Shown one piece after another: positions 1 to 11,179 of a stretch of 64,000 bases of DNA. Origin of the DNA: Candidatus Dojkabacteria bacterium (GTDB lineage: Bacteria > Patescibacteriota > Dojkabacteria > SC72). The number at the start of each line of letters is the position of its first letter. The stretch's first letter is position 1. Below the pieces are notes generated by a model. The model worked only from the letters and a program-made list of their open reading frames with translations. It searched no databases and was not told the origin of the DNA. Location: NCBI GenBank assembly GCA_050950165.1, contig JBMNHC010000001.1:657073-721072 (forward strand), given 5' to 3'. The position numbers and the translations under genes are program-made.

Positions 1-1266
1 GTAGCAATGATATATAGCTTTGGTGTTAATGATGAAGATGTGGATGGAATGTTAGATGAAGATCCAGAGAATACAGATATGTTAGATAGTAATTCTAGAG
101 ATTTCTTAGACAGAGCAATTGAGGATTACAATAAAATGTTTGGGACATCATTTGATACATCATCGTATAAGTTTCAAAACTATTACAAAGATGTTAGTCG
201 AAGAGTGAAAGATCGAGAGGTAGACATTCTACTTGTTGTTAGTATGTTCTTAACAGGATTTGATGCTACAACTCTTAATACTCTTTGGGTTGATAAAAAT
301 TTAAGGTTACATGGTCTTCTTCAAGCATACTCAAGGACAAATCGTATATTAAATACAGTCAAGACATTTGGAAATATTGTATGTTTTAGGAATTTAGAAC
401 AAGCTACTAATGAATCTATTGCTCTATTTGGTGACAAAGAAGCTAGTGGTATTGTATTACTAAAATCTTACGAAGATTACTATCACGGATACCAAGATGG
501 TGATAAGGAGGTTAGGGGCTATGAGAGTTTAGTAAAAGAGCTTTTAGAGAAATTCCCTGTTGGAGACATCATTGTTGGCGAGCAAAATCAGAAAGATTTT
601 ATCAAACTGTATGGTGCAATATTAAGAGTGAGAAATATTTTAACAACATTTGATGAGTTTGAGGGGAATGAGATATTAACAGATAGAGATGTTCAAGATT
701 ACCATAGTATGTATATTGATTTGTACAATGAGTTTAAGAAGGCAGAAGATTCTGAGAAGGAAAATATTAATGATGATGTTGTATTTGAGATGGAGCTTAT
801 TAAGCAGGTTGATATAGATATTGATTATATTCTTGCATTAATTAAGAAATATCATGAAGATCATATTAAAAACAAGGAGATTTTGGTTGATATTAACAAG
901 GCGATTGATGCAAGTATGAAGTTAAGGAACAAGAAGGAATTAATTAACCAGTTTATTTCTTCTCTTGATATATCTTCATCGGTTGATGAGGATTGGACTA
1001 AGTTTGTTGAAAAGAAAAGGATAGAAGAGTTGGATAGGATTATTGAAGAAGAGAATCTTAATAGAGAAGAAGCATATAAATTTGTTAAAAATGCTTTCCG
1101 TGATGGTAGTGTTCCAGTAACTGGTACAGCTATTACTACAGTATTGCCTCCGACAAGAAAATTCGATAGAGACTCACAGAGAAGTAAGATTAAGGAGAAT
1201 GTTTTGAAGAAGTTAAAAGAGTTTTTTGATAGATTTTTTGATATTTCGGGTGGGGTGTTTAACTAA
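1..1266 (+). CDS. hsdR: Type I restriction enzyme R subunit (HsdR), C-terminal portion. The gene is 5'-truncated by the window edge; the frame is open from nt 1.
   Basis: Translation contains the HsdR C-terminal helicase motif block ILLVVSMFLTGFDATTLNTLWVDKNLRLHGLLQAYSRTNR. The reading frame continues upstream of the first Met to position 1 (V-A-M...). Confidence 0.8.
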   Translation, partial: VAMIYSFGVNDEDVDGMLDEDPENTDMLDSNSRDFLDRAIEDYNKMFGTSFDTSSYKFQNYYKDVSRRVKDREVDILLVVSMFLTGFDATTLNTLWVDKNLRLHGLLQAYSRTNRILNTVKTFGNIVCFRNLEQATNESIALFGDKEASGIVLLKSYEDYYHGYQDGDKEVRGYESLVKELLEKFPVGDIIVGEQNQKDFIKLYGAILRVRNILTTFDEFEGNEILTDRDVQDYHSMYIDLYNEFKKAEDSEKENINDDVVFEMELIKQVDIDIDYILALIKKYHEDHIKNKEILVDINKAIDASMKLRNKKELINQFISSLDISSSVDEDWTKFVEKKRIEELDRIIEEENLNREEAYKFVKNAFRDGSVPVTGTAITTVLPPTRKFDRDSQRSKIKENVLKKLKEFFDRFFDISGGVFN

Positions 1267-1333: not shown

Positions 1334-2257
1334 ATGAGAAACTATTACAGAATAATACTTGGATCTGGAAATATTTATGCTGAACAAATGTACGATGAGG
1401 GATATGTAGGTGTTAGTTTCCTCCCTGCAATAGATTTAAAAGGTAGGCTACATGAGAATTGGAGAGATTTTAATAAAGAATTCATACCCATTTATCTAGA
1501 AAAATTCCCTGAAAAATCAAGGGTAGCAGCAGGATTAGCCTGTGGTTCTATTTGGACTGTATCTAAAGGATTACAGATAGGGGATATTGTTCTAAGTCCA
1601 GATGGTGAAGGAGCATATTATATTGGCGAAGTAGAAGGAGATTATGAATATCATAAAGATACTGTATTACCACATAGAAGAAAGGTAAAATGGTATGAAA
1701 AGAAAATCCAAAGGAAAGAAATGAGTGAAAGTTTGCAGAATTCAACTGGATCAATAGGGACTGTATGTAATATATCTGGATATTCTGAAGAAATCGATAA
1801 TCTGCTAGAAGGTAATAATCAAAGGGTAGTTAGAGTACTTGATGAAACTGTTGAAGATGCTTCTAGTTTTGTTTTAGAAAAGCATTTAGAAGATTTCTTA
1901 GTAGAAAATTGGGATAAAACAGCATTAGGCAAAAATTATAATATCTATGAGGAAGAAGGAGAGCTAGTTGGACAACAATTTCCTACAGATACTGGTCCTA
2001 TTGATATTTTAGCTATTAGTAAAGATAAGAAGGTATTACTTGTTGTAGAGCTAAAGAAAGGAAGAATTAGTGATGTAGTTGTTGGGCAATTACAAAGATA
2101 CATGGGTTATGTTAAAGATGAATTAGCAGAGAAAGATCAAACAGTTAAAGGAGTGATAATAACATTAGAAGATGATATTAGACTTAGAAGAGCCTTATCT
2201 GTAACAAATAATATTGAGTTTTACAGATACGAGATTGATTTTAAGTTAAAAAATTGA
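1334..2257 (+). CDS. Two-domain protein: N-terminal EVE/PUA-like beta-barrel fused to a C-terminal NucS/RecB-like PD-(D/E)xK nuclease. Candidate modification-dependent (type IV-like) restriction endonuclease.
   Basis: The N-terminal half has a PUA/EVE-like pattern (IGDIVLSPDGEGAYYIGEVEGDYEY). The C-terminal half, GPIDILAISKDKKVLLVVELKKGRISDVVVGQLQRYMGYV, matches the NucS-type D...D...E-x-K motif. It lies directly downstream of hsdR. Confidence 0.55.
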   Translation: MRNYYRIILGSGNIYAEQMYDEGYVGVSFLPAIDLKGRLHENWRDFNKEFIPIYLEKFPEKSRVAAGLACGSIWTVSKGLQIGDIVLSPDGEGAYYIGEVEGDYEYHKDTVLPHRRKVKWYEKKIQRKEMSESLQNSTGSIGTVCNISGYSEEIDNLLEGNNQRVVRVLDETVEDASSFVLEKHLEDFLVENWDKTALGKNYNIYEEEGELVGQQFPTDTGPIDILAISKDKKVLLVVELKKGRISDVVVGQLQRYMGYVKDELAEKDQTVKGVIITLEDDIRLRRALSVTNNIEFYRYEIDFKLKN

Positions 2258-2295
2258 AAAACATCCCTAATTTTTGTATAATATATATAGAGAGG

Positions 2296-2346
2296 TGGAA
2301 GCCACCTGACCCCTTTGTGTCAGGTCTAAGCTTCCATCTTTTTTAT
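2296..2346 (+). terminator. Rho-independent terminator hairpin between convergent genes, with a T-tract on the + strand.
   Basis: Inverted repeat tggaagc-cacctgac ... gtcaggt-ctaagcttcca, followed by tcttttttatc. It overlaps the stop codon of the minus-strand gene 2326..2808. Confidence 0.5.
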
Positions 2347-2808
2347 CTCCAATACATCAATAATCTTCTTATTTTTTACAATAATAATATTTACATTACC
2401 CTTTTGATTACTAAGTAGATATCTCCTAGTTCTATGTATAGTTTCTTGTCTAATTTCCTTAATACTTTTCTTACTACCACTAATATCTAAAAATATTACA
2501 CCTTCTCCTTGTATCTGTTGTAGTCCTTTCCTTGTTTGACTATCTATACTGGATTTACCTTTGGCTGATTTAATTTCTAATTTAATACCAGACCATAAGG
2601 CGTCAGGGGTTTTTAGTCCAAGATCACCTTTACCAGCTAGGAACTGTATCTTCCCACCAAACTCTCTAATTACTACCTCTGCCATACTCATCTCATGTTT
2701 ACTTGGTTCTCTTTGTCTTTTATCTATCTTTCCAATACCAGGTGTTAATCTTTTTCTAAAAGTATTCTTAACACTTTTAACCTTAATTAGAATATCTATA
2801 TTACTCAT
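2326..2808 (-). CDS. Hypothetical 160-aa protein with a PD-(D/E)xK-like motif; possible small nuclease.
   Basis: The motif GKGDLGLKTPDALWSGIKLEIKSAKG has D...E-x-K spacing. No confident family match. Confidence 0.45.
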   Translation of the reverse strand: MSNIDILIKVKSVKNTFRKRLTPGIGKIDKRQREPSKHEMSMAEVVIREFGGKIQFLAGKGDLGLKTPDALWSGIKLEIKSAKGKSSIDSQTRKGLQQIQGEGVIFLDISGSKKSIKEIRQETIHRTRRYLLSNQKGNVNIIIVKNKKIIDVLEIKKMEA

Positions 2809-4003: not shown

Positions 4004-4780
4004 ATGTCTACCTTACAAAATTACTACAACAATATATATACAGAAGACGATAGACTCTTTAAAGACCAAAAACATAAAACAGAATTCATACTAACTACAG
4101 ACTACATAGACAAATATCTTAAAAAAGGTATGAAGATATTAGAACTAGGAGCAGGTACAGGAGCATACTCTCTTCTTTATGCATCTAAAGGATATGAAGT
4201 AGATGCATTGGAATATGTAAAGGAGAATTTAGATATCCTTAAATCTAAGATAACTGAGGATATGAATATTAATCCTGTACTAGGAGATGCAAGAGATCTA
4301 TCAATATATGAAGATAATACCTTTGATATGGTACTAAACCTAGGACCTCTCTATCACCTAGAAGGAGAGGATAGGGATAAGGTAATACAAGAAGCTAAGA
4401 GGGTATGTAAAAAGGGAGGATTAATATACTTTGCATATATATCTAACAACTTTACATTCGTAAAATGCATAAAGAAATTTGATAATTACATCATAGAATA
4501 CAAAGAAGAGATACTAGAAGGATATAGATTAAGAGATAGTCAAAATATATTTACATTCATGTATCCAAGTGAAATGGAAGAGTTAATGAAGAAGTATGAC
4601 CTATCTAAAGTACATCATCTAACAACAGATGGTATTAGTAGCCTTCTCATTGATCGAATAAATGAATTACCAGAAGATCAGTATGAAGTATGGATAGATT
4701 ACTTAAGAACAACAGCAGAGAGAGAAGACCAACTAGGATATGGAGAACATCTATTGTATATTGCTAGATGGGAATCATAG
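4004..4780 (+). CDS. Class I SAM-dependent methyltransferase.
   Basis: Glycine-rich SAM-binding motif ILELGAGTGAYS, followed by an acidic residue (EVDALE). Confidence 0.75.
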   Translation: MSTLQNYYNNIYTEDDRLFKDQKHKTEFILTTDYIDKYLKKGMKILELGAGTGAYSLLYASKGYEVDALEYVKENLDILKSKITEDMNINPVLGDARDLSIYEDNTFDMVLNLGPLYHLEGEDRDKVIQEAKRVCKKGGLIYFAYISNNFTFVKCIKKFDNYIIEYKEEILEGYRLRDSQNIFTFMYPSEMEELMKKYDLSKVHHLTTDGISSLLIDRINELPEDQYEVWIDYLRTTAEREDQLGYGEHLLYIARWES

Positions 4781-5247
4781 GTCTTGGTGATATTGGTAGT
4801 AGGGTTGCTGAATTAGGAAAGAATATGGGTATGGATGTGTACTATTGGTCTAGAAAAACAAGAGATGAAAAATATACATATTTAGAGTTAGAAGAATTGA
4901 TTAAAACCTCTGATTATCTCTTCTTAACTATTGCAGATGGTTCTGAGACTAAAGAATTTTTGAATAAAGAAAGAATAGATATGATGAAAAAGAATTCACA
5001 TATCATAAATACGACTGGTAATGAGGTTTGGGATTTTAATTATGCAGTAGAAAAAGTAAAAGATGGATCTATTGGTGGTATAGGGTTAGATGAAGATAAA
5101 GTGGAGATAAAAGATTATGGATGTAATGTTATGATTACTCCACATATAGCTTGGTTTACGAAAGAATCTTTTGAAGAGGATTATAGAATATGGGTTGAAT
5201 GTATTATCTCTGTGATTGATAATGATCCTATTAATATAGCTAATTAA
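4768..5247 (+). CDS. N-terminally truncated D-isomer-specific 2-hydroxyacid dehydrogenase: NAD-binding and catalytic C-terminal part only. Probable gene remnant.
   Basis: Starts exactly at the GIIGLGDIGSRVA Rossmann motif and contains the catalytic His context NVMITPHIAW. A TAG stop lies immediately upstream in frame (4765..4767). It overlaps the methyltransferase by 13 nt. Confidence 0.55.
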   Translation: MGIIGLGDIGSRVAELGKNMGMDVYYWSRKTRDEKYTYLELEELIKTSDYLFLTIADGSETKEFLNKERIDMMKKNSHIINTTGNEVWDFNYAVEKVKDGSIGGIGLDEDKVEIKDYGCNVMITPHIAWFTKESFEEDYRIWVECIISVIDNDPINIAN

Positions 5248-6420: not shown

Positions 6421-7893
6421 CTACTCTGCTTGTACAACTTCAGGTAATTGTAACTTCTCAAATGTATTATCTGGCAATATTCTGTAATACCCTGATCCCT
6501 CTGGTCCATATACACTCCAAGAGTTAACAGGAACATTGTATGTTTGTCCTGTACTTGGTGAAGTTACCATCTGATACCCTCTCATTCCCTCTAACCAATT
6601 ATCACCAACTGCATTTGCTAGAGACTGTGAATATGTACTACTTTGAGCAGTCATTGTAGCTCTTGTATTTTCAATAGGGTTAATTATTGGAAGTAATGTA
6701 TTCTTTCTCATCATCATATTCATATCAACGAAGTCAAAACTATCTTGTATCTTCTGTAAATCACCTTTTACATTTTCCCAATTCTCAGCTATTGTCATCT
6801 GCCCAAACCCATAAGCTGATGCATACTTAGTCTCACCAGCAGAGTATGGAGGCTGATATACTCCTACAGTTACTTTACCTAGGATAGGGATCCCTTGCAT
6901 TTTACCACTAAGATCGAATTCCTGTGCACTATATCCTAATATCTGAGATGGTAATACAGGACCGTCTGTTAATGTAATATTTGTTATTTCTTTAATCTGT
7001 GAGAACATCTCTTCTGCCCAAGTTCTAGGTGTATATTCACCTTTTAATTCTGTAGTGTGCATATAGCTAAGTACTGTTCTTTGATCAGATTTTATTATCT
7101 GAATGAAATCTTTTTGCTCGTTTTCAACAGCGTAATCAGAAGGTTTATCTAGCTGGAAGTACTTTCCCTTGTGTGTCTTAAAACCTTCAGGAACTTGCTT
7201 CTCATCAGGTTCTTGAGTTTGCTCTGCTAGTAAAATGTCGTCTGTAAGTACTCTTGTTCTTGCAAAACATCCAGAAATTTCCTTTAAGAGACTTTCTCTC
7301 TCTTCAAAGACCTCCGTTGGTGCCCAATATACTTTAAATGTAACAAAATCTTTTGATTTAGAAACAAGCATCTTTCCTTTTATATTGTATCCATTAATTG
7401 TTGCTGTAACATCTGCATAAGCTTCGTCCTCTGATTCTTCTAACTCTACAATATCCTGCATCTGAAAGGTCCCTTCTCCCTCTTCAGTTGTTTGTTGTAA
7501 AATTGTAGAAAATGTATTTAAGATATCTTGTTTAGTTAATTCCTGTTGTAATTTAGCAGTATAAATGAGTACTGCTGTTGTATTTGTTCCGTCCTCCATT
7601 ATAGAGACTGTTCCATTATCAAGAGCATAGAACCATCCATTTGGAACTCCAATACTAAAAGCACTCTCAGGATACTCTATCTTTGTTAATGTACAGTTTG
7701 GATTATCATTCTCTACAGTCTCAGCATAATTCTCTATTTTAGGCTTCCCTATTCCTAAATCTTTAACAAAATCCTTAACAGATTCTGTTCTAAGAAGAAA
7801 TACTAGGAGTATTAAGAGTACTAAAATTATGCAAGAGAGGATAATAGATTTCTTATGATTGGAAAAGAAATCTTTAAAAGAAAAATTATTCAT
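6421..7893 (-). CDS. Hypothetical membrane-anchored protein, paralog A: one N-terminal TM helix and a large extracytoplasmic domain.
   Basis: N-terminus MNNFSFKDFF plus a hydrophobic helix. Conserved blocks ENDNPNCTLTKIEYPESAFSIGVPNGW and a C-terminal TSPSTGQTY.VP.NSWS.YGPEG.GYYR. It is a tandem paralog of 8006..9457. Confidence 0.6.
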   Translation of the reverse strand: MNNFSFKDFFSNHKKSIILSCIILVLLILLVFLLRTESVKDFVKDLGIGKPKIENYAETVENDNPNCTLTKIEYPESAFSIGVPNGWFYALDNGTVSIMEDGTNTTAVLIYTAKLQQELTKQDILNTFSTILQQTTEEGEGTFQMQDIVELEESEDEAYADVTATINGYNIKGKMLVSKSKDFVTFKVYWAPTEVFEERESLLKEISGCFARTRVLTDDILLAEQTQEPDEKQVPEGFKTHKGKYFQLDKPSDYAVENEQKDFIQIIKSDQRTVLSYMHTTELKGEYTPRTWAEEMFSQIKEITNITLTDGPVLPSQILGYSAQEFDLSGKMQGIPILGKVTVGVYQPPYSAGETKYASAYGFGQMTIAENWENVKGDLQKIQDSFDFVDMNMMMRKNTLLPIINPIENTRATMTAQSSTYSQSLANAVGDNWLEGMRGYQMVTSPSTGQTYNVPVNSWSVYGPEGSGYYRILPDNTFEKLQLPEVVQAE

Positions 7894-8005
7894 ATCGTTT
7901 AAAGATATAAAATTAAGACATTAATTAATGATAGCAGATATTTGAGTCATGTAAAGCCTAATAAATTCTCCTGCTATCTTAAGGTTATTAAACATATTCA
8001 TATAA

Positions 8006-9457
8006 TTACTGTAACTTCTCTAACGAATTGTTTGGTAATTCTCTGTAGTATCCTGGTCCTTCTGGTCCATATGAACTCCAAGAGTTAAGTGGAACATCAT
8101 ATGTTTGTCCTGTACTTGGTGAAGTTACTGTCTCATACCCTCTCATACCCTCTGCCCAGTTCTCGCTAGACTCATCACTCATAGAAGATGAATAGGTACT
8201 ACCTTTAGATGTAACTGAAGACCTTGTACTCTCCATAGGTCGATTTGATGGTAGTAATGTATTCTTTCTTGTTGCACCAATATCAGTAATGGTAAAACTG
8301 TCTTGCATCTTTTGTAATGTAGCTTTTACACTTGTCCAATTTTCAGGCGTTGAAATCTGTATAGCCCAGAAAGCAGATGAATACTTAGTTCCAAATCCAA
8401 AGTATGGAGCTTGATACACTCCTACAGTAACTTTTCCTACAACGGAAATACCAGAGAGATTTCCAGTAAAGCTAAATTCTTGTACACTATGCCCTGATAT
8501 TTGAGAAGGTAGTTTAGCACCATTTGTTAATTTTAAATTTTGAATTTTTGCAAACTCAGGAAGTGCTTTCTGTGCCCAAGATCTAGGAGTATATGCACCT
8601 TCAAATCCAGTAGCATATGCATAGCTAAAACCTGCTTTACCATCAGTTCTAGTTAAATCAATACCGCTATCTGTCTCTCCTGTAACTTGGAAATTAGATG
8701 GCTTATCTAACCTAAAATATTTTCCTTTGTATGTTTGAAAACCTGCAGGCGTTTGTTCTCTCTTTGAATCTTTGTTTTTTGCTGCAAGTAAAACGTCATC
8801 GGTAAGAACCCTAGTTCTTGCAAAGCACCCACAGATATCCTTTAAGAGACCTTCTTTCTCTGCATAGACTTTAACTGGTGCCCAATATGATTTAAATGTA
8901 ACAAATTCTCCAGATTGAGATACAGACATTCTCCCTTTTATATCATATCCATCAATTTTAGATACAATATCAGCATTTGCTTCATTCTCTGATTCTTGTA
9001 TATTTTGTATATCAAAAGTACCATTTGAAGCTTCAATTGTTCGTTTAAAAATTGTAGAAAATGCTGTTAAAAATTCTTTCTTTGTTAAATCTTTCTTTAA
9101 TTTCGCAGTATACAAGAATACTGCAGTAGTATTTGTTTGATCTTCCATTATGGAAACAGTCCCGTTATTAACCTCATACAACCATCCATTTGGAACTCCA
9201 ATACTAAATGCACTCTCAGGATACTCTATCTTTGTTAATGTACAGTTTGGATTATCATTTTCTACAGTAGCAGAGTAGTATCTATTCTCAGAACTTTCTT
9301 TTTCTGGATTACTACCACTGTTTTTTATAACACCCTTAAAAGAATCAGTTAAAAAAAAGGTAAGTAAGAGTACAATGGTAAGGATTAATATTGTTGAGAT
9401 AATGATTATAACTTTTTTATATTTTGTAAAGAAATCTTTAAAAGAGAAATTGTTCAT
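8006..9457 (-). CDS. Hypothetical membrane-anchored protein, paralog B.
   Basis: Same N-terminus and conserved blocks as 6421..7893. Stretches of about 70 to 90 nt are near-identical at the DNA level (e.g. 7650..7720 vs 9200..9270; 6505..6595 vs 8068..8158). Confidence 0.6.
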   Translation of the reverse strand: MNNFSFKDFFTKYKKVIIIISTILILTIVLLLTFFLTDSFKGVIKNSGSNPEKESSENRYYSATVENDNPNCTLTKIEYPESAFSIGVPNGWLYEVNNGTVSIMEDQTNTTAVFLYTAKLKKDLTKKEFLTAFSTIFKRTIEASNGTFDIQNIQESENEANADIVSKIDGYDIKGRMSVSQSGEFVTFKSYWAPVKVYAEKEGLLKDICGCFARTRVLTDDVLLAAKNKDSKREQTPAGFQTYKGKYFRLDKPSNFQVTGETDSGIDLTRTDGKAGFSYAYATGFEGAYTPRSWAQKALPEFAKIQNLKLTNGAKLPSQISGHSVQEFSFTGNLSGISVVGKVTVGVYQAPYFGFGTKYSSAFWAIQISTPENWTSVKATLQKMQDSFTITDIGATRKNTLLPSNRPMESTRSSVTSKGSTYSSSMSDESSENWAEGMRGYETVTSPSTGQTYDVPLNSWSSYGPEGPGYYRELPNNSLEKLQ

Positions 9458-9535
9458 ATTATTTAGAACATAAAATTAGGGGTTTTAAAATAATAGCAGA
9501 TATTCATATAATGTAAAACTACTGTTTGAAAACTT

Positions 9536-11179
9536 TTAACTCTTTGCTACTAAAGCAAATCTCTCTATCATATCCCTATTCATATTCAATGAATTTGGAA
9601 GTTGCTCCCCTATTCTGTCAACCCATCTACCTTCTAAAAGATGAATGTTCTTAATCTCACTTACACTCTCTCCAACACTCATATACAGGTTATCTAGAAT
9701 ATCTCTACCTTCTCTTGCAGATTTTAAAATAGTTTCCTGCATAGATTTACTAACAGAATATTTACCAAAATCACCAATGAATGTATTTGATAAAAATTCT
9801 TTTAAGTATGACGTTGTGATAGAGGTAGTAGGTAATATACCGTCATTAGTCCTTATACCACTTAATACAACTTTCGGTTTAACAGTTCTATCAAAGCCTG
9901 CAGAGAGTCTAAGATAGTCTAAAGTATTACTGTCAATATTTATTGTTTTTAAATATTCCAATACATTATCTACCTTACTCTCAAATGAAAATACCTCTTC
10001 TAGACTACTACCGTTTCTTACTTGTGGATATTTGAATATATCACTAATCTTTCTAGAAATATCGTTATGGATATTTCTCTCTCCTACAATCTCCTTTATA
10101 CCATCCTCTGGAAAAATCCTATCTATATCTTCAGCTGTATACTCCTTCTTAACCTCATACTCTAGATTGTAGTCATACTTAAGGAGATACTTTATCTCAT
10201 TGTACAAAACTATTCCTAATATCGGTTCATCTTTAGCAAACTCTCCAATCCATATTCTAAGATTTCTCCCTATTCTGTTCTGTTCCTTTGTGCTTTGTGT
10301 ATTCATTCTCTCTTTAAGAGCGTTAGCCATCTCTCTAGCTATCTCTGTATGTACTAGCTTCTCAGGCTCATATTGACCAGGGAGAGTGATAACTTCGTTA
10401 GTAGAGAGAACAAAATCATATTTCGATGATTTCATACCCTCTTGGTGTTTTTTCTGACCTAACTCTATTTTATAAAACGAGGAGGTAGAAAATTTGTCTT
10501 CAATGAGAAGTTTTAAAGCCAAAATACTATCAAAAGAGTGCTTCTGAATAGAATGCCCATCATATGATATCCTCTCAGGATTATCTAAATATCTCTGGAA
10601 ATAGTTTTGCATCTTTGATATCTCTCCTCTCTCTTCGGATAGTCTAAGAGCATATTCTAACTTCTTAGAGCGATATATCGGTATTTCAAATCCATTCTCT
10701 TGTAAGATAGGGGTACCATCTGCATATCTATATATCTTTTTTCTTTTTGCATCTGGTCCTTTCTCATACTGTAAGTATCTAGCTTCCTCTTCAGTACTAT
10801 TTATGTGAGAAAGGTCAGGTTTAAGTATTCCATATGATAGATCATTTTTTCTTACAAATATCATATCTCCATCAAATTTAACACCTTTTGTATATCTGAG
10901 GTACTCTTCTGTAACGATAGTGACACCACGAGATCTGTATATGTGTGTATTTACGAGAGCTTTACTAACTTCATTACTATCTATACCCTCTATTCTATTA
11001 ATATCTATACTCTCTGTTTGATATGTTTGGGCTCCTAAAACTAAGGGTAGAGGGAGATTTTCTGAAATAATTTGGTTAAATTGATCAACTTCTAAAGAGT
11101 CAGAGCCAGGTGTTACCAATGATATTGTAGTATCAAGTTTTTCTTCTGTTTGTGTTAAAGAGTCAACATCTACATCCAT
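9536..11179 (-). CDS. Hypothetical 547-aa protein with no TM segment and no recognisable domain; first gene of the cluster with the two paralogs.
   Basis: Long uninterrupted ORF, co-directional with and 78 nt upstream of paralog B. Confidence 0.55.
   Translation of the reverse strand: MDVDVDSLTQTEEKLDTTISLVTPGSDSLEVDQFNQIISENLPLPLVLGAQTYQTESIDINRIEGIDSNEVSKALVNTHIYRSRGVTIVTEEYLRYTKGVKFDGDMIFVRKNDLSYGILKPDLSHINSTEEEARYLQYEKGPDAKRKKIYRYADGTPILQENGFEIPIYRSKKLEYALRLSEERGEISKMQNYFQRYLDNPERISYDGHSIQKHSFDSILALKLLIEDKFSTSSFYKIELGQKKHQEGMKSSKYDFVLSTNEVITLPGQYEPEKLVHTEIAREMANALKERMNTQSTKEQNRIGRNLRIWIGEFAKDEPILGIVLYNEIKYLLKYDYNLEYEVKKEYTAEDIDRIFPEDGIKEIVGERNIHNDISRKISDIFKYPQVRNGSSLEEVFSFESKVDNVLEYLKTINIDSNTLDYLRLSAGFDRTVKPKVVLSGIRTNDGILPTTSITTSYLKEFLSNTFIGDFGKYSVSKSMQETILKSAREGRDILDNLYMSVGESVSEIKNIHLLEGRWVDRIGEQLPNSLNMNRDMIERFALVAKS

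Follow-up and report, generated by a model that had tools for sequence, protein, structure and literature searches.

A gene that joins a reader-like beta-barrel to a nuclease and lies directly behind the restriction subunit of a type I restriction-modification (R-M) system raises the question of whether it belongs to that system, serves DNA repair or acts as a defence enzyme of its own. Such a gene is found close to the start of a 64,000-nucleotide stretch of a Candidatus Dojkabacteria genome (NCBI GenBank assembly GCA_050950165.1, contig JBMNHC010000001.1, positions 657,073 to 721,072 of the forward strand), which is called the window in the following. A first-pass annotation, made from the sequence alone, had proposed it as a candidate type IV restriction enzyme. 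The analysis presented here identifies the gene as a further copy of an already catalogued family, the defence candidate PDC-S02 with the architecture DUF8426 + NucS_C, and the more general kind of enzyme, a PUA-like reader fused to a nuclease, is also known. With regard to function, we give about an even chance to the reading that the gene codes for an autonomous, single-protein, modification-dependent (type IV or type IIM-like) restriction endonuclease.

The open reading frame (ORF) extends from ATG to stop on the plus strand and codes for 307 amino acids (aa), exactly where it had been placed (Table 1). It is a genuine gene and not a chance frame, since a protein of identical sequence has been recorded and its homologues form at least 8000 clusters. 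The identical protein belongs to an NCBI metagenome-assembled genome (MAG) of Candidatus Dojkabacteria, where it is encoded on a 724-kb contig and named 'endonuclease NucS domain-containing protein'. The position directly after a type I hsdR gene was confirmed as well: the hsdR stop codon (1264-1266) is separated from the start of the gene by 67 nucleotides (nt), and the product of the readable hsdR part matches the C-terminal modules EcoR124_C (Pfam, E 1.6e-67) and T1R_D3-like (E 3.6e-46), the PADLOC model REase_I (E 7.9e-127, model positions 540-972 of 976) and, confined to the 3′ end of the model, TIGR00348 hsdR. On a 3.5-kb contig coding for the identical protein (L001), the hsdR ORF is prolonged upstream to 658 aa. 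Genes for HsdM and HsdS further upstream were sought by an exact-match metagenome scan using the first 43 bases of the window, which yielded no match. On the other side of the gene, folding of the RNA from 2255 to 2350 gave −28.4 kcal/mol (z = −4.59; 0 of 200 shuffles equally stable), and the stem-loop concerned, situated between the gene and a convergent ORF, is probably an intrinsic terminator that closes the transcription unit. Given this terminator, the gene appears to share a transcription unit with hsdR, the two being its last genes. The G+C content around the gene (~32%) is the same as in the remaining window.

The C-terminal half had been described as a NucS/RecB-type PD-(D/E)xK nuclease, and this description is borne out by profile searches, structural comparison and alignment. 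NucS_C (PF01939) matched residues 200-279 with an E-value of 4.8e-8 (33.5 bits, Pfam cut-off 24), next to weaker Pfam matches to YhcG_C and PDDEXK_4. The AlphaFold model of the full-length protein (mean predicted local distance difference test score, pLDDT, 79) consists of two folded halves connected by a disordered stretch (residues 161-173, pLDDT <50), and its best matches in the PDB, obtained with Foldseek, were EndoMS (5gke) and NucS (2vld) at an E-value of 1e-5. When the family profile was compared with Pyrococcus abyssi NucS (2vld), residues 205-277 were aligned (E 3.3e-4), bringing D224 (IDIL versus VDV), E239-L-K241 (VELK versus LELK) and the subsequent QxxRY into register. D224, E239, L240, K241, Q252, Q254 and Y256 are invariant in 61 homologues. 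Since D224, E239 and K241 are intact and invariant and align with NucS, the nuclease half looks catalytically competent as judged from its sequence.

For the N-terminal half, a PUA-like reader fold had been suggested, and modelling agrees with this suggestion. Residues 1-165, modelled alone with 66 sequences, gave a confident structure (pLDDT 92.9; predicted template modelling score, pTM, 0.86), whose best PDB matches in Foldseek were the YTH domains of YTHDF2 (4rdn), YTHDF1 (7yz8) and YTHDC2 (9h35 and 9h36) and the EVE-HNH enzyme VcaM4I (6yex), with probabilities of 0.97-1.00, E-values of 2e-3 to 2e-2 and template modelling (TM) scores of 0.42-0.57. All lower-ranked PDB matches had a probability of at most 0.30, so that no fold other than a PUA-like one emerged from this comparison, and NucS was absent from the top 50 PDB structure matches of the N-domain alone. 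Secondary-structure elements of the model follow the order beta-alpha-beta-alpha-alpha-beta-beta-beta-alpha-beta-alpha, which we take to be that of a PUA-like fold. As modelled, the fold of the N-domain is PUA-like. Invariant aromatic and basic residues of the domain, namely W43, F46, Y95, Y104, H114, R116 and W120, are of the types that a putative base-binding pocket would need. Sequence-based searches placed the domain apart from known readers: a comparison of the N-domain profile with PDB sequences gave nothing meaningful (best E 0.19), a permissive Pfam scan (E <= 10) of 66 N-domains of the family yielded no EVE, YTH, ASCH, SRA or DCD match, and a search with the N-domain alone in a set of 5.8 billion proteins returned only fragments of its own family.

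Concerning the identity of the family, the protein is matched over its full length by two PADLOC hidden Markov models (HMMs) of PDC-S02, PDLC04799 (E 2.8e-153) and PDLC04824 (E 5.9e-152), both at 1-306 of 308. The architecture PF28530 + PF01939 is listed in precomputed Pfam annotation for the identical protein (P0001) and for all 120 homologues listed; PF28530, or DUF8426, is the label that newer Pfam gives to the N-domain and is taken from this precomputed annotation of homologues only, whereas NucS_C was confirmed by our own Pfam scan. With PDC-S02 the protein shares the full-length HMM, the two domains and the type I R-M association, with no structural difference, and only its place after hsdR differs from the family's commoner slot between hsdS and hsdR. 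All of the at least 8000 homologous clusters, formed at 90% identity, are significant, with top E-values near 1e-200, and the best 120 of them are 62-100% identical to the query. A strict two-peptide pattern retrieved 336 relatives among 185,579 species genomes. The best 80 of these 336 are 60-66% identical to the query and come from Patescibacteria, Bacteroidota, Proteobacteria, Planctomycetota, Firmicutes, Omnitrophota, Methanosarcinales and Nitrosopumilus. Sequence identity that varies so little from one domain of life to another is a sign of horizontal spread under strong constraint.

PDC-S02 was flagged independently as a defence candidate by a guilt-by-embedding approach (Payne et al., 2024), PDC systems in general having been recognized by their location in type I R-M operons, and one environmental survey counts it among the most abundant candidate system types. 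The remaining papers that mention PDC-S02 merely list the family in surveys, and our literature search found no paper on DUF8426 or on NucS with a PUA-like domain in restriction. The possibility of a phage-borne gene was considered and discarded, as the phage collection gave just two weak N-domain matches. In BFVD, the N-domain model matched A0A8S5NVT7 (336 aa; Myoviridae sp. ctEBR14, from a virome) with a TM score of 0.73 and an E-value of 5e-10, far above any solved structure; judged from predicted structures, the DUF8426-type fold also occurs on phage or prophage-derived contigs.

Further information on the N-domain comes from the proteins in which it is combined with other modules. Its profile matched 2826 representative proteins at E <= 1e-3, 20 longer ones of which were scanned for domains. 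Most of these 20 carry a different effector than the protein studied here: DUF8426 is joined to a McrB-like AAA_5 in P0252, P0277, P0312, P0354 and P0378 (with a weak partial match in P0279), to GmrSD_N in P0260, to HNH in P0283, to Mrr_cat in P0251, to an HSDR_N-type nuclease in P0243, to an ABC ATPase in P0323, to HEPN_Swt1 in P0379, to a DUF900 hydrolase in P0349 and to CBS in P0247, while P0281 again contains NucS_C. Partners of the McrB, GmrSD, Mrr and HNH types are a hallmark of modified-DNA readers in type IV restriction. In P0312 (1096 aa), DUF4357, DUF8426 and MrcB_N precede a single AAA_5 motor, a domain string that suggests a multi-specificity type IV enzyme. A more distant relative is encoded on the Lactococcus cremoris plasmid pF27A (L091:5866-8447) and about 20 related dairy plasmids. 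It is a 211-aa ORF, annotated as 'type II restriction endonuclease' or 'hypothetical', with a DUF8426-like region (30% identity over query residues 49-162) and a P-loop NTPase gene directly after it. Judged from sequence, this pair may represent a version in which reader and NTPase are split, carried by phage-resistance plasmids.

The genomic surroundings of the family were examined in 79 usable genome loci, in which ORFs were called and Hsd proteins were labelled by Pfam-checked seeds; flanks of up to 10 kb per side were included, less on short contigs. HsdM, HsdS or HsdR was present in 35 loci and directly adjacent to the family gene in 28, whereas type I genes were not seen in the examined flanks of the other 44. 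The commonest order is helix-turn-helix (HTH) gene - hsdM - hsdS - family gene - hsdR - YgjP/SprT-like peptidase gene, often with 4-nt overlaps of stop and start codons. Less commonly, the family gene stands before hsdM or, as in the window, directly after hsdR (L014, L034, L049, L071 and L080). Acinetobacter plasmids show the order hsdM - hsdS - family gene - Abi - hsdR - SprT, and further copies lie in BREX-like, type IIG, GmrSD and prophage-like islands. The gene of the YgjP/SprT-like metallopeptidase, which follows hsdR (L016, L084 and related loci) in 14 type I operons with a family member and occurs on the Acinetobacter plasmids too, represents a conserved fifth gene in operons of this sort.

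Two observations on these loci bear on whether the family protein works alone. First, at the 43 loci that lack type I genes, DNA methylases made up only 2 of the 121 neighbours within two genes and no family of neighbours was recurrent, which means that the family gene is tied neither to a cognate methylase nor to an obligate partner. Second, across 28 loci, the embedded family proteins are 55-90% identical to each other (median 65%), in contrast to a median identity of 27% for the co-located HsdR proteins, 253 of whose 378 pairs had less than 35% identity or gave no hit. The two sets of identities are hardly correlated (Spearman rho 0.12), and the flanking HsdR proteins fall into at least two families. 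Since the embedded genes are far more conserved than their HsdR hosts and vary independently of them, an autonomous cassette that has repeatedly lodged in type I operons is favoured over a co-evolving subunit. At a single locus, on a metagenomic contig (L009:307-3834), the gene is part of an array of HTH (69 aa) - family gene - EcoRI_methylase - small ORF - GmrSD/HNH with gaps of 2-4 nt, which resembles a controller-R-M cassette and was the sole case of this kind seen.

The reading as a modification-dependent restriction endonuclease is based on the intact nuclease, the fold matches to YTH domains, which bind N6-methyladenine (m6A), and to the EVE domain of VcaM4I, the effector fusions of the N-domain, the lack of a cognate methylase, the defence contexts, the autonomy from HsdR and the independent flagging of PDC-S02. 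The fusion partners and the missing methylase also fit the original type IV proposal, which stands as the best available inference. In mechanistic terms, the invariant aromatic and basic residues of the PUA-like DUF8426 domain would form a pocket that accommodates a modified base, probably one flipped out of foreign DNA, with DNA as the presumed ligand and modification as the presumed trigger. By analogy to NucS, the flexibly tethered PD-(D/E)xK domain, probably as a dimer, would then cut the DNA nearby, and this endonuclease action would be carried out by one protein independently of nucleoside triphosphates. Host DNA would be spared because it lacks the recognized mark, for which reason a cognate methylase would not be needed. 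The cassette moves horizontally and is often inserted into or next to type I R-M operons, whose activity it may complement by attacking phage DNA with modifications that escape the type I system. As many copies adjoin HsdM, which writes m6A, generic m6A in DNA seems an unlikely mark; modified cytosines or hypermodified bases are our guess.

This reading has precedents. Experiments have established modification dependence for fusions of PUA-superfamily domains to nucleases (Lutz et al., 2019, PMC6765204; PMC7897488), and VcaM4I is a characterized EVE-HNH enzyme dependent on 5-methylcytosine or 5-hydroxymethylcytosine (PMC7897488). Like the protein from the window, such enzymes (the EVE-HNH enzymes VcaM4I and TspA15I, MspJI and YenY4I) consist of an N-terminal PUA-like reader and a C-terminal nuclease, with neither an NTPase nor a cognate methylase. 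The differences are that the reader of the present protein forms a separate sequence family, DUF8426, which matches no EVE, YTH, SRA or ASCH profile, and that its nuclease is NucS/RecB-like instead of HNH or MspJI-type. EVE, ASCH and DCD domains were also described beside type I R-M systems and as fusions to PD-(D/E)xK and McrB-like modules (Bell et al., 2020).

Several points weigh against a modification-dependent restriction endonuclease. Restriction enzymes are not usually conserved so strongly between phyla. The structural match to YTH and EVE domains is moderate (TM 0.42-0.57, E ~1e-3) and comes without a sequence-profile link to EVE, YTH or ASCH. RNA or free nucleotides can be ligands of PUA-like domains as well, and one relative carries DUF8426 fused to a HEPN RNase. 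The 4-nt overlaps in many hsdM-hsdS-gene-hsdR operons, which imply translational coupling, could signal a functional link with the type I system or with the m6A methylome of that system. Furthermore, when one PDC-S02 representative (subfamily unstated) was expressed in E. coli B, the four candidates found to protect against T7, T5 or T4 did not include it.

Some of these points lead to the strongest rival, a nucleotide-gated abortive infection. According to this explanation, a free modified nucleotide, for instance N6-methyl-dAMP (m6-dAMP), is the ligand of the PUA-like domain, and its binding sets the NucS-type nuclease free to attack cellular and phage DNA. The nucleotide would be released when a phage degrades the m6A-methylated host chromosome, and the neighbouring HsdM would supply the signal. 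A model for such a function is PUA-Cal-HAD of E. coli ECOR28, likewise a PUA-like sensor fused to an effector, whose PUA-like domain senses m6-dAMP from Dam-methylated host DNA (2026 preprint, PMC12871103); its putative kinship with DUF8426 was judged by description. The PUA family of PUA-Cal is reported to be fused to HEPN, HNH and McrB and to be embedded in R-M operons with N6-adenine methylases (PMC12871103). DUF8426 has the same partners (HEPN_Swt1, HNH and AAA_5), and its genes likewise stand beside the N6_Mtase HsdM, often with overlapping stop and start codons. This shared set of partners and the shared embedding make a nucleotide-gated nuclease a live possibility, although we consider it unlikely on balance. 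The effector of PUA-Cal-HAD is a calcineurin-like phosphoesterase with a HAD partner and its ligand is free m6-dAMP (PMC12871103), and neither a calcineurin nor a HAD fusion was found among the 20 longer DUF8426 proteins scanned. Moreover, the absence of type I genes from the examined flanks of more than half of the loci leaves these copies without a neighbouring HsdM, and Mrr_cat, GmrSD_N and McrB are classical DNA-directed modules of type IV systems. The related and slightly bolder idea that DUF8426 senses a methylome danger signal (e.g., m6-dAMP from the HsdM-marked chromosome) and not phage DNA, with the operon embedding reflecting a functional coupling of writer and alarm, appears a little less probable still.

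A different use of the type I neighbourhood would be that of a guard in the manner of PrrC, held inactive by the Hsd complex and firing when an anti-restriction protein of the Ocr or Stp kind disables that complex. The recurrent slot between hsdS and hsdR with its 4-nt overlaps is that of prrC in EcoprrI (hsdM-hsdS-prrC-hsdR), and PrrC has been cited as a precedent for an embedded back-up defence. The resemblance ends with the slot, as the ABC ATPase and tRNA nuclease domains of PrrC are unrelated and neither an ABC ATPase nor an anticodon-nuclease module was detected in Pfam, NCBIfam and PADLOC scans of the protein. Evolution of the family protein does not follow that of the adjacent Hsd proteins: that it stays at about 65% identity where HsdR, in differing families, is at about 27% speaks against a specific fit between the two proteins. 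More than half of the 79 loci lack adjacent type I genes altogether, and a guard function would leave a reader-type domain with McrB, GmrSD and HNH fusions unexplained. We therefore regard a PrrC-like guard as improbable.

The embedding in type I operons could also be taken as a sign of an accessory specificity module, which would work with HsdR, HsdM and HsdS and extend type I restriction to modified DNA, a role that was predicted for the EVE, ASCH and DCD domains noted with type I R-M systems, stand-alone EVE and ASCH proteins among them (Bell et al., 2020). This appears quite improbable for a protein that has a complete nuclease of its own with intact catalytic residues, whose evolution is independent of HsdR and for which 44 of the 79 loci offer no type I neighbours. 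It is even harder to see a classical type II endonuclease that is blocked by modification and comes with a cognate methylase. The controller-R-M-like array with EcoRI_methylase described above and the annotation of some distant N-domain relatives as 'type II restriction endonuclease' would be in line with it, but a methylase is no recurrent neighbour (2 of 121), and a cross-phylum identity of 60-70% is unlike that of rapidly diverging type II restriction endonucleases, making this explanation very improbable. Least credible of all is a housekeeping NucS/EndoMS mismatch-repair endonuclease: the NCBI name, the NucS-matching C-terminal PD-(D/E)xK domain with its D...E-x-K motif and downstream QxxY, and the common logic of an N-terminal base-capturing domain followed by a nuclease are shared with NucS/EndoMS (2vld, 5gke), but the N-domain is a different one that alone matches YTH and EVE instead of NucS, the NucS equivalog models match only residues 166-302 with 42 bits (NF003270, cut-off 216) and 29.4 bits (NF002876, cut-off 252), and the patchy, horizontally transferred distribution and the defence-island contexts do not suit an orthologue. 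The protein is not a NucS orthologue. Neither of the two outcomes that the first-pass annotation had named as refuting its proposal, an N-terminal fold other than PUA-like and a housekeeping NucS, was obtained.

Table 1. Features of the gene and of its surroundings in the window (positions count from the first nucleotide of the window).
Feature	Position	Strand	Basis and remarks
hsdR, 3′ part (type I R subunit)	1-1266	+	Last 419 codons readable; gene start upstream of the window
Gene studied here	1334-2257	+	ATG-to-stop ORF, 307 aa; DUF8426 (PUA-like) + NucS_C nuclease; member of PADLOC candidate PDC-S02
N-terminal domain, aa 1-160	1334-1813	+	DUF8426, PUA-like (YTH/EVE-type) beta-barrel by structure model and Foldseek; predicted modified-base/nucleotide sensor
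Flexible linker, ~aa 161-175	1814-1858	+	Low pLDDT in the full-length model
Nuclease domain, aa 176-307	1859-2254	+	NucS_C/RecB-like PD-(D/E)xK; Pfam, Foldseek and family profile
Catalytic core	2003-2056	+	PD-(D/E)xK motif; D224 codon 2003-2005, E239-L240-K241 codons 2048-2056
Stem-loop with U-run	2292-2350	+	Probable intrinsic terminator; RNA fold of 2255-2350
160-aa ORF	2326-2808	-	Convergent to the gene; weak match to CdiA_C toxin domain, E 6.4e-4, 20.3 bits (cut-off 26.6)
DUF3800 protein, 306 aa	2960-3880	-	Pfam E 4.8e-10; two genes downstream of the gene
159-aa ORF	4768-5247	+	C-terminal part only of the D-2-hydroxyacid dehydrogenase NAD-binding domain, profile positions 39-178
Three consecutive large ORFs (490, 483 and 547 aa)	6421-11179	-	No Pfam match at E <= 1e-3

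Next to the gene itself, some of its neighbours in the window deserve mention. The convergent 160-aa ORF is conserved on contig L001, and its stop codon lies inside the terminator hairpin. The protein containing DUF3800 gave no PADLOC hit; in other Dojkabacteria MAGs (L002 and L003), a homologue (E 1e-56) is located between hsdM and hsdS of a type I operon, adjoining a PDC-S02 member. The gene might thus be another defence-associated passenger. The 159-aa ORF, which overlaps the end of an S-adenosylmethionine-dependent methyltransferase gene (4004-4780), looks like a truncated gene remnant given the partial domain match. The first of the three consecutive large ORFs starts with an N-terminal hydrophobic stretch.

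For the window itself, the finding adds an ordinary further copy of the family to a Candidatus Dojkabacteria genome. For the family as a whole, the homology searches describe a candidate system that is very common, unusually conserved across bacteria and archaea and functionally uncharacterized. Its tight embedding in type I operons offers a tractable test of whether the embedded genes are hitch-hiking or functionally coupled. If the ligand of DUF8426 were found, it would give a function to many annotations of the 'NucS domain-containing' or 'restriction system' kind, and DUF8426 would add a new clade of readers to the PUA superfamily, with a modification-specific nuclease for epigenetic mapping as a possible yield. 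The interest in this family would be higher still if it were true that the ligand is a nucleotide derived from the methylome.

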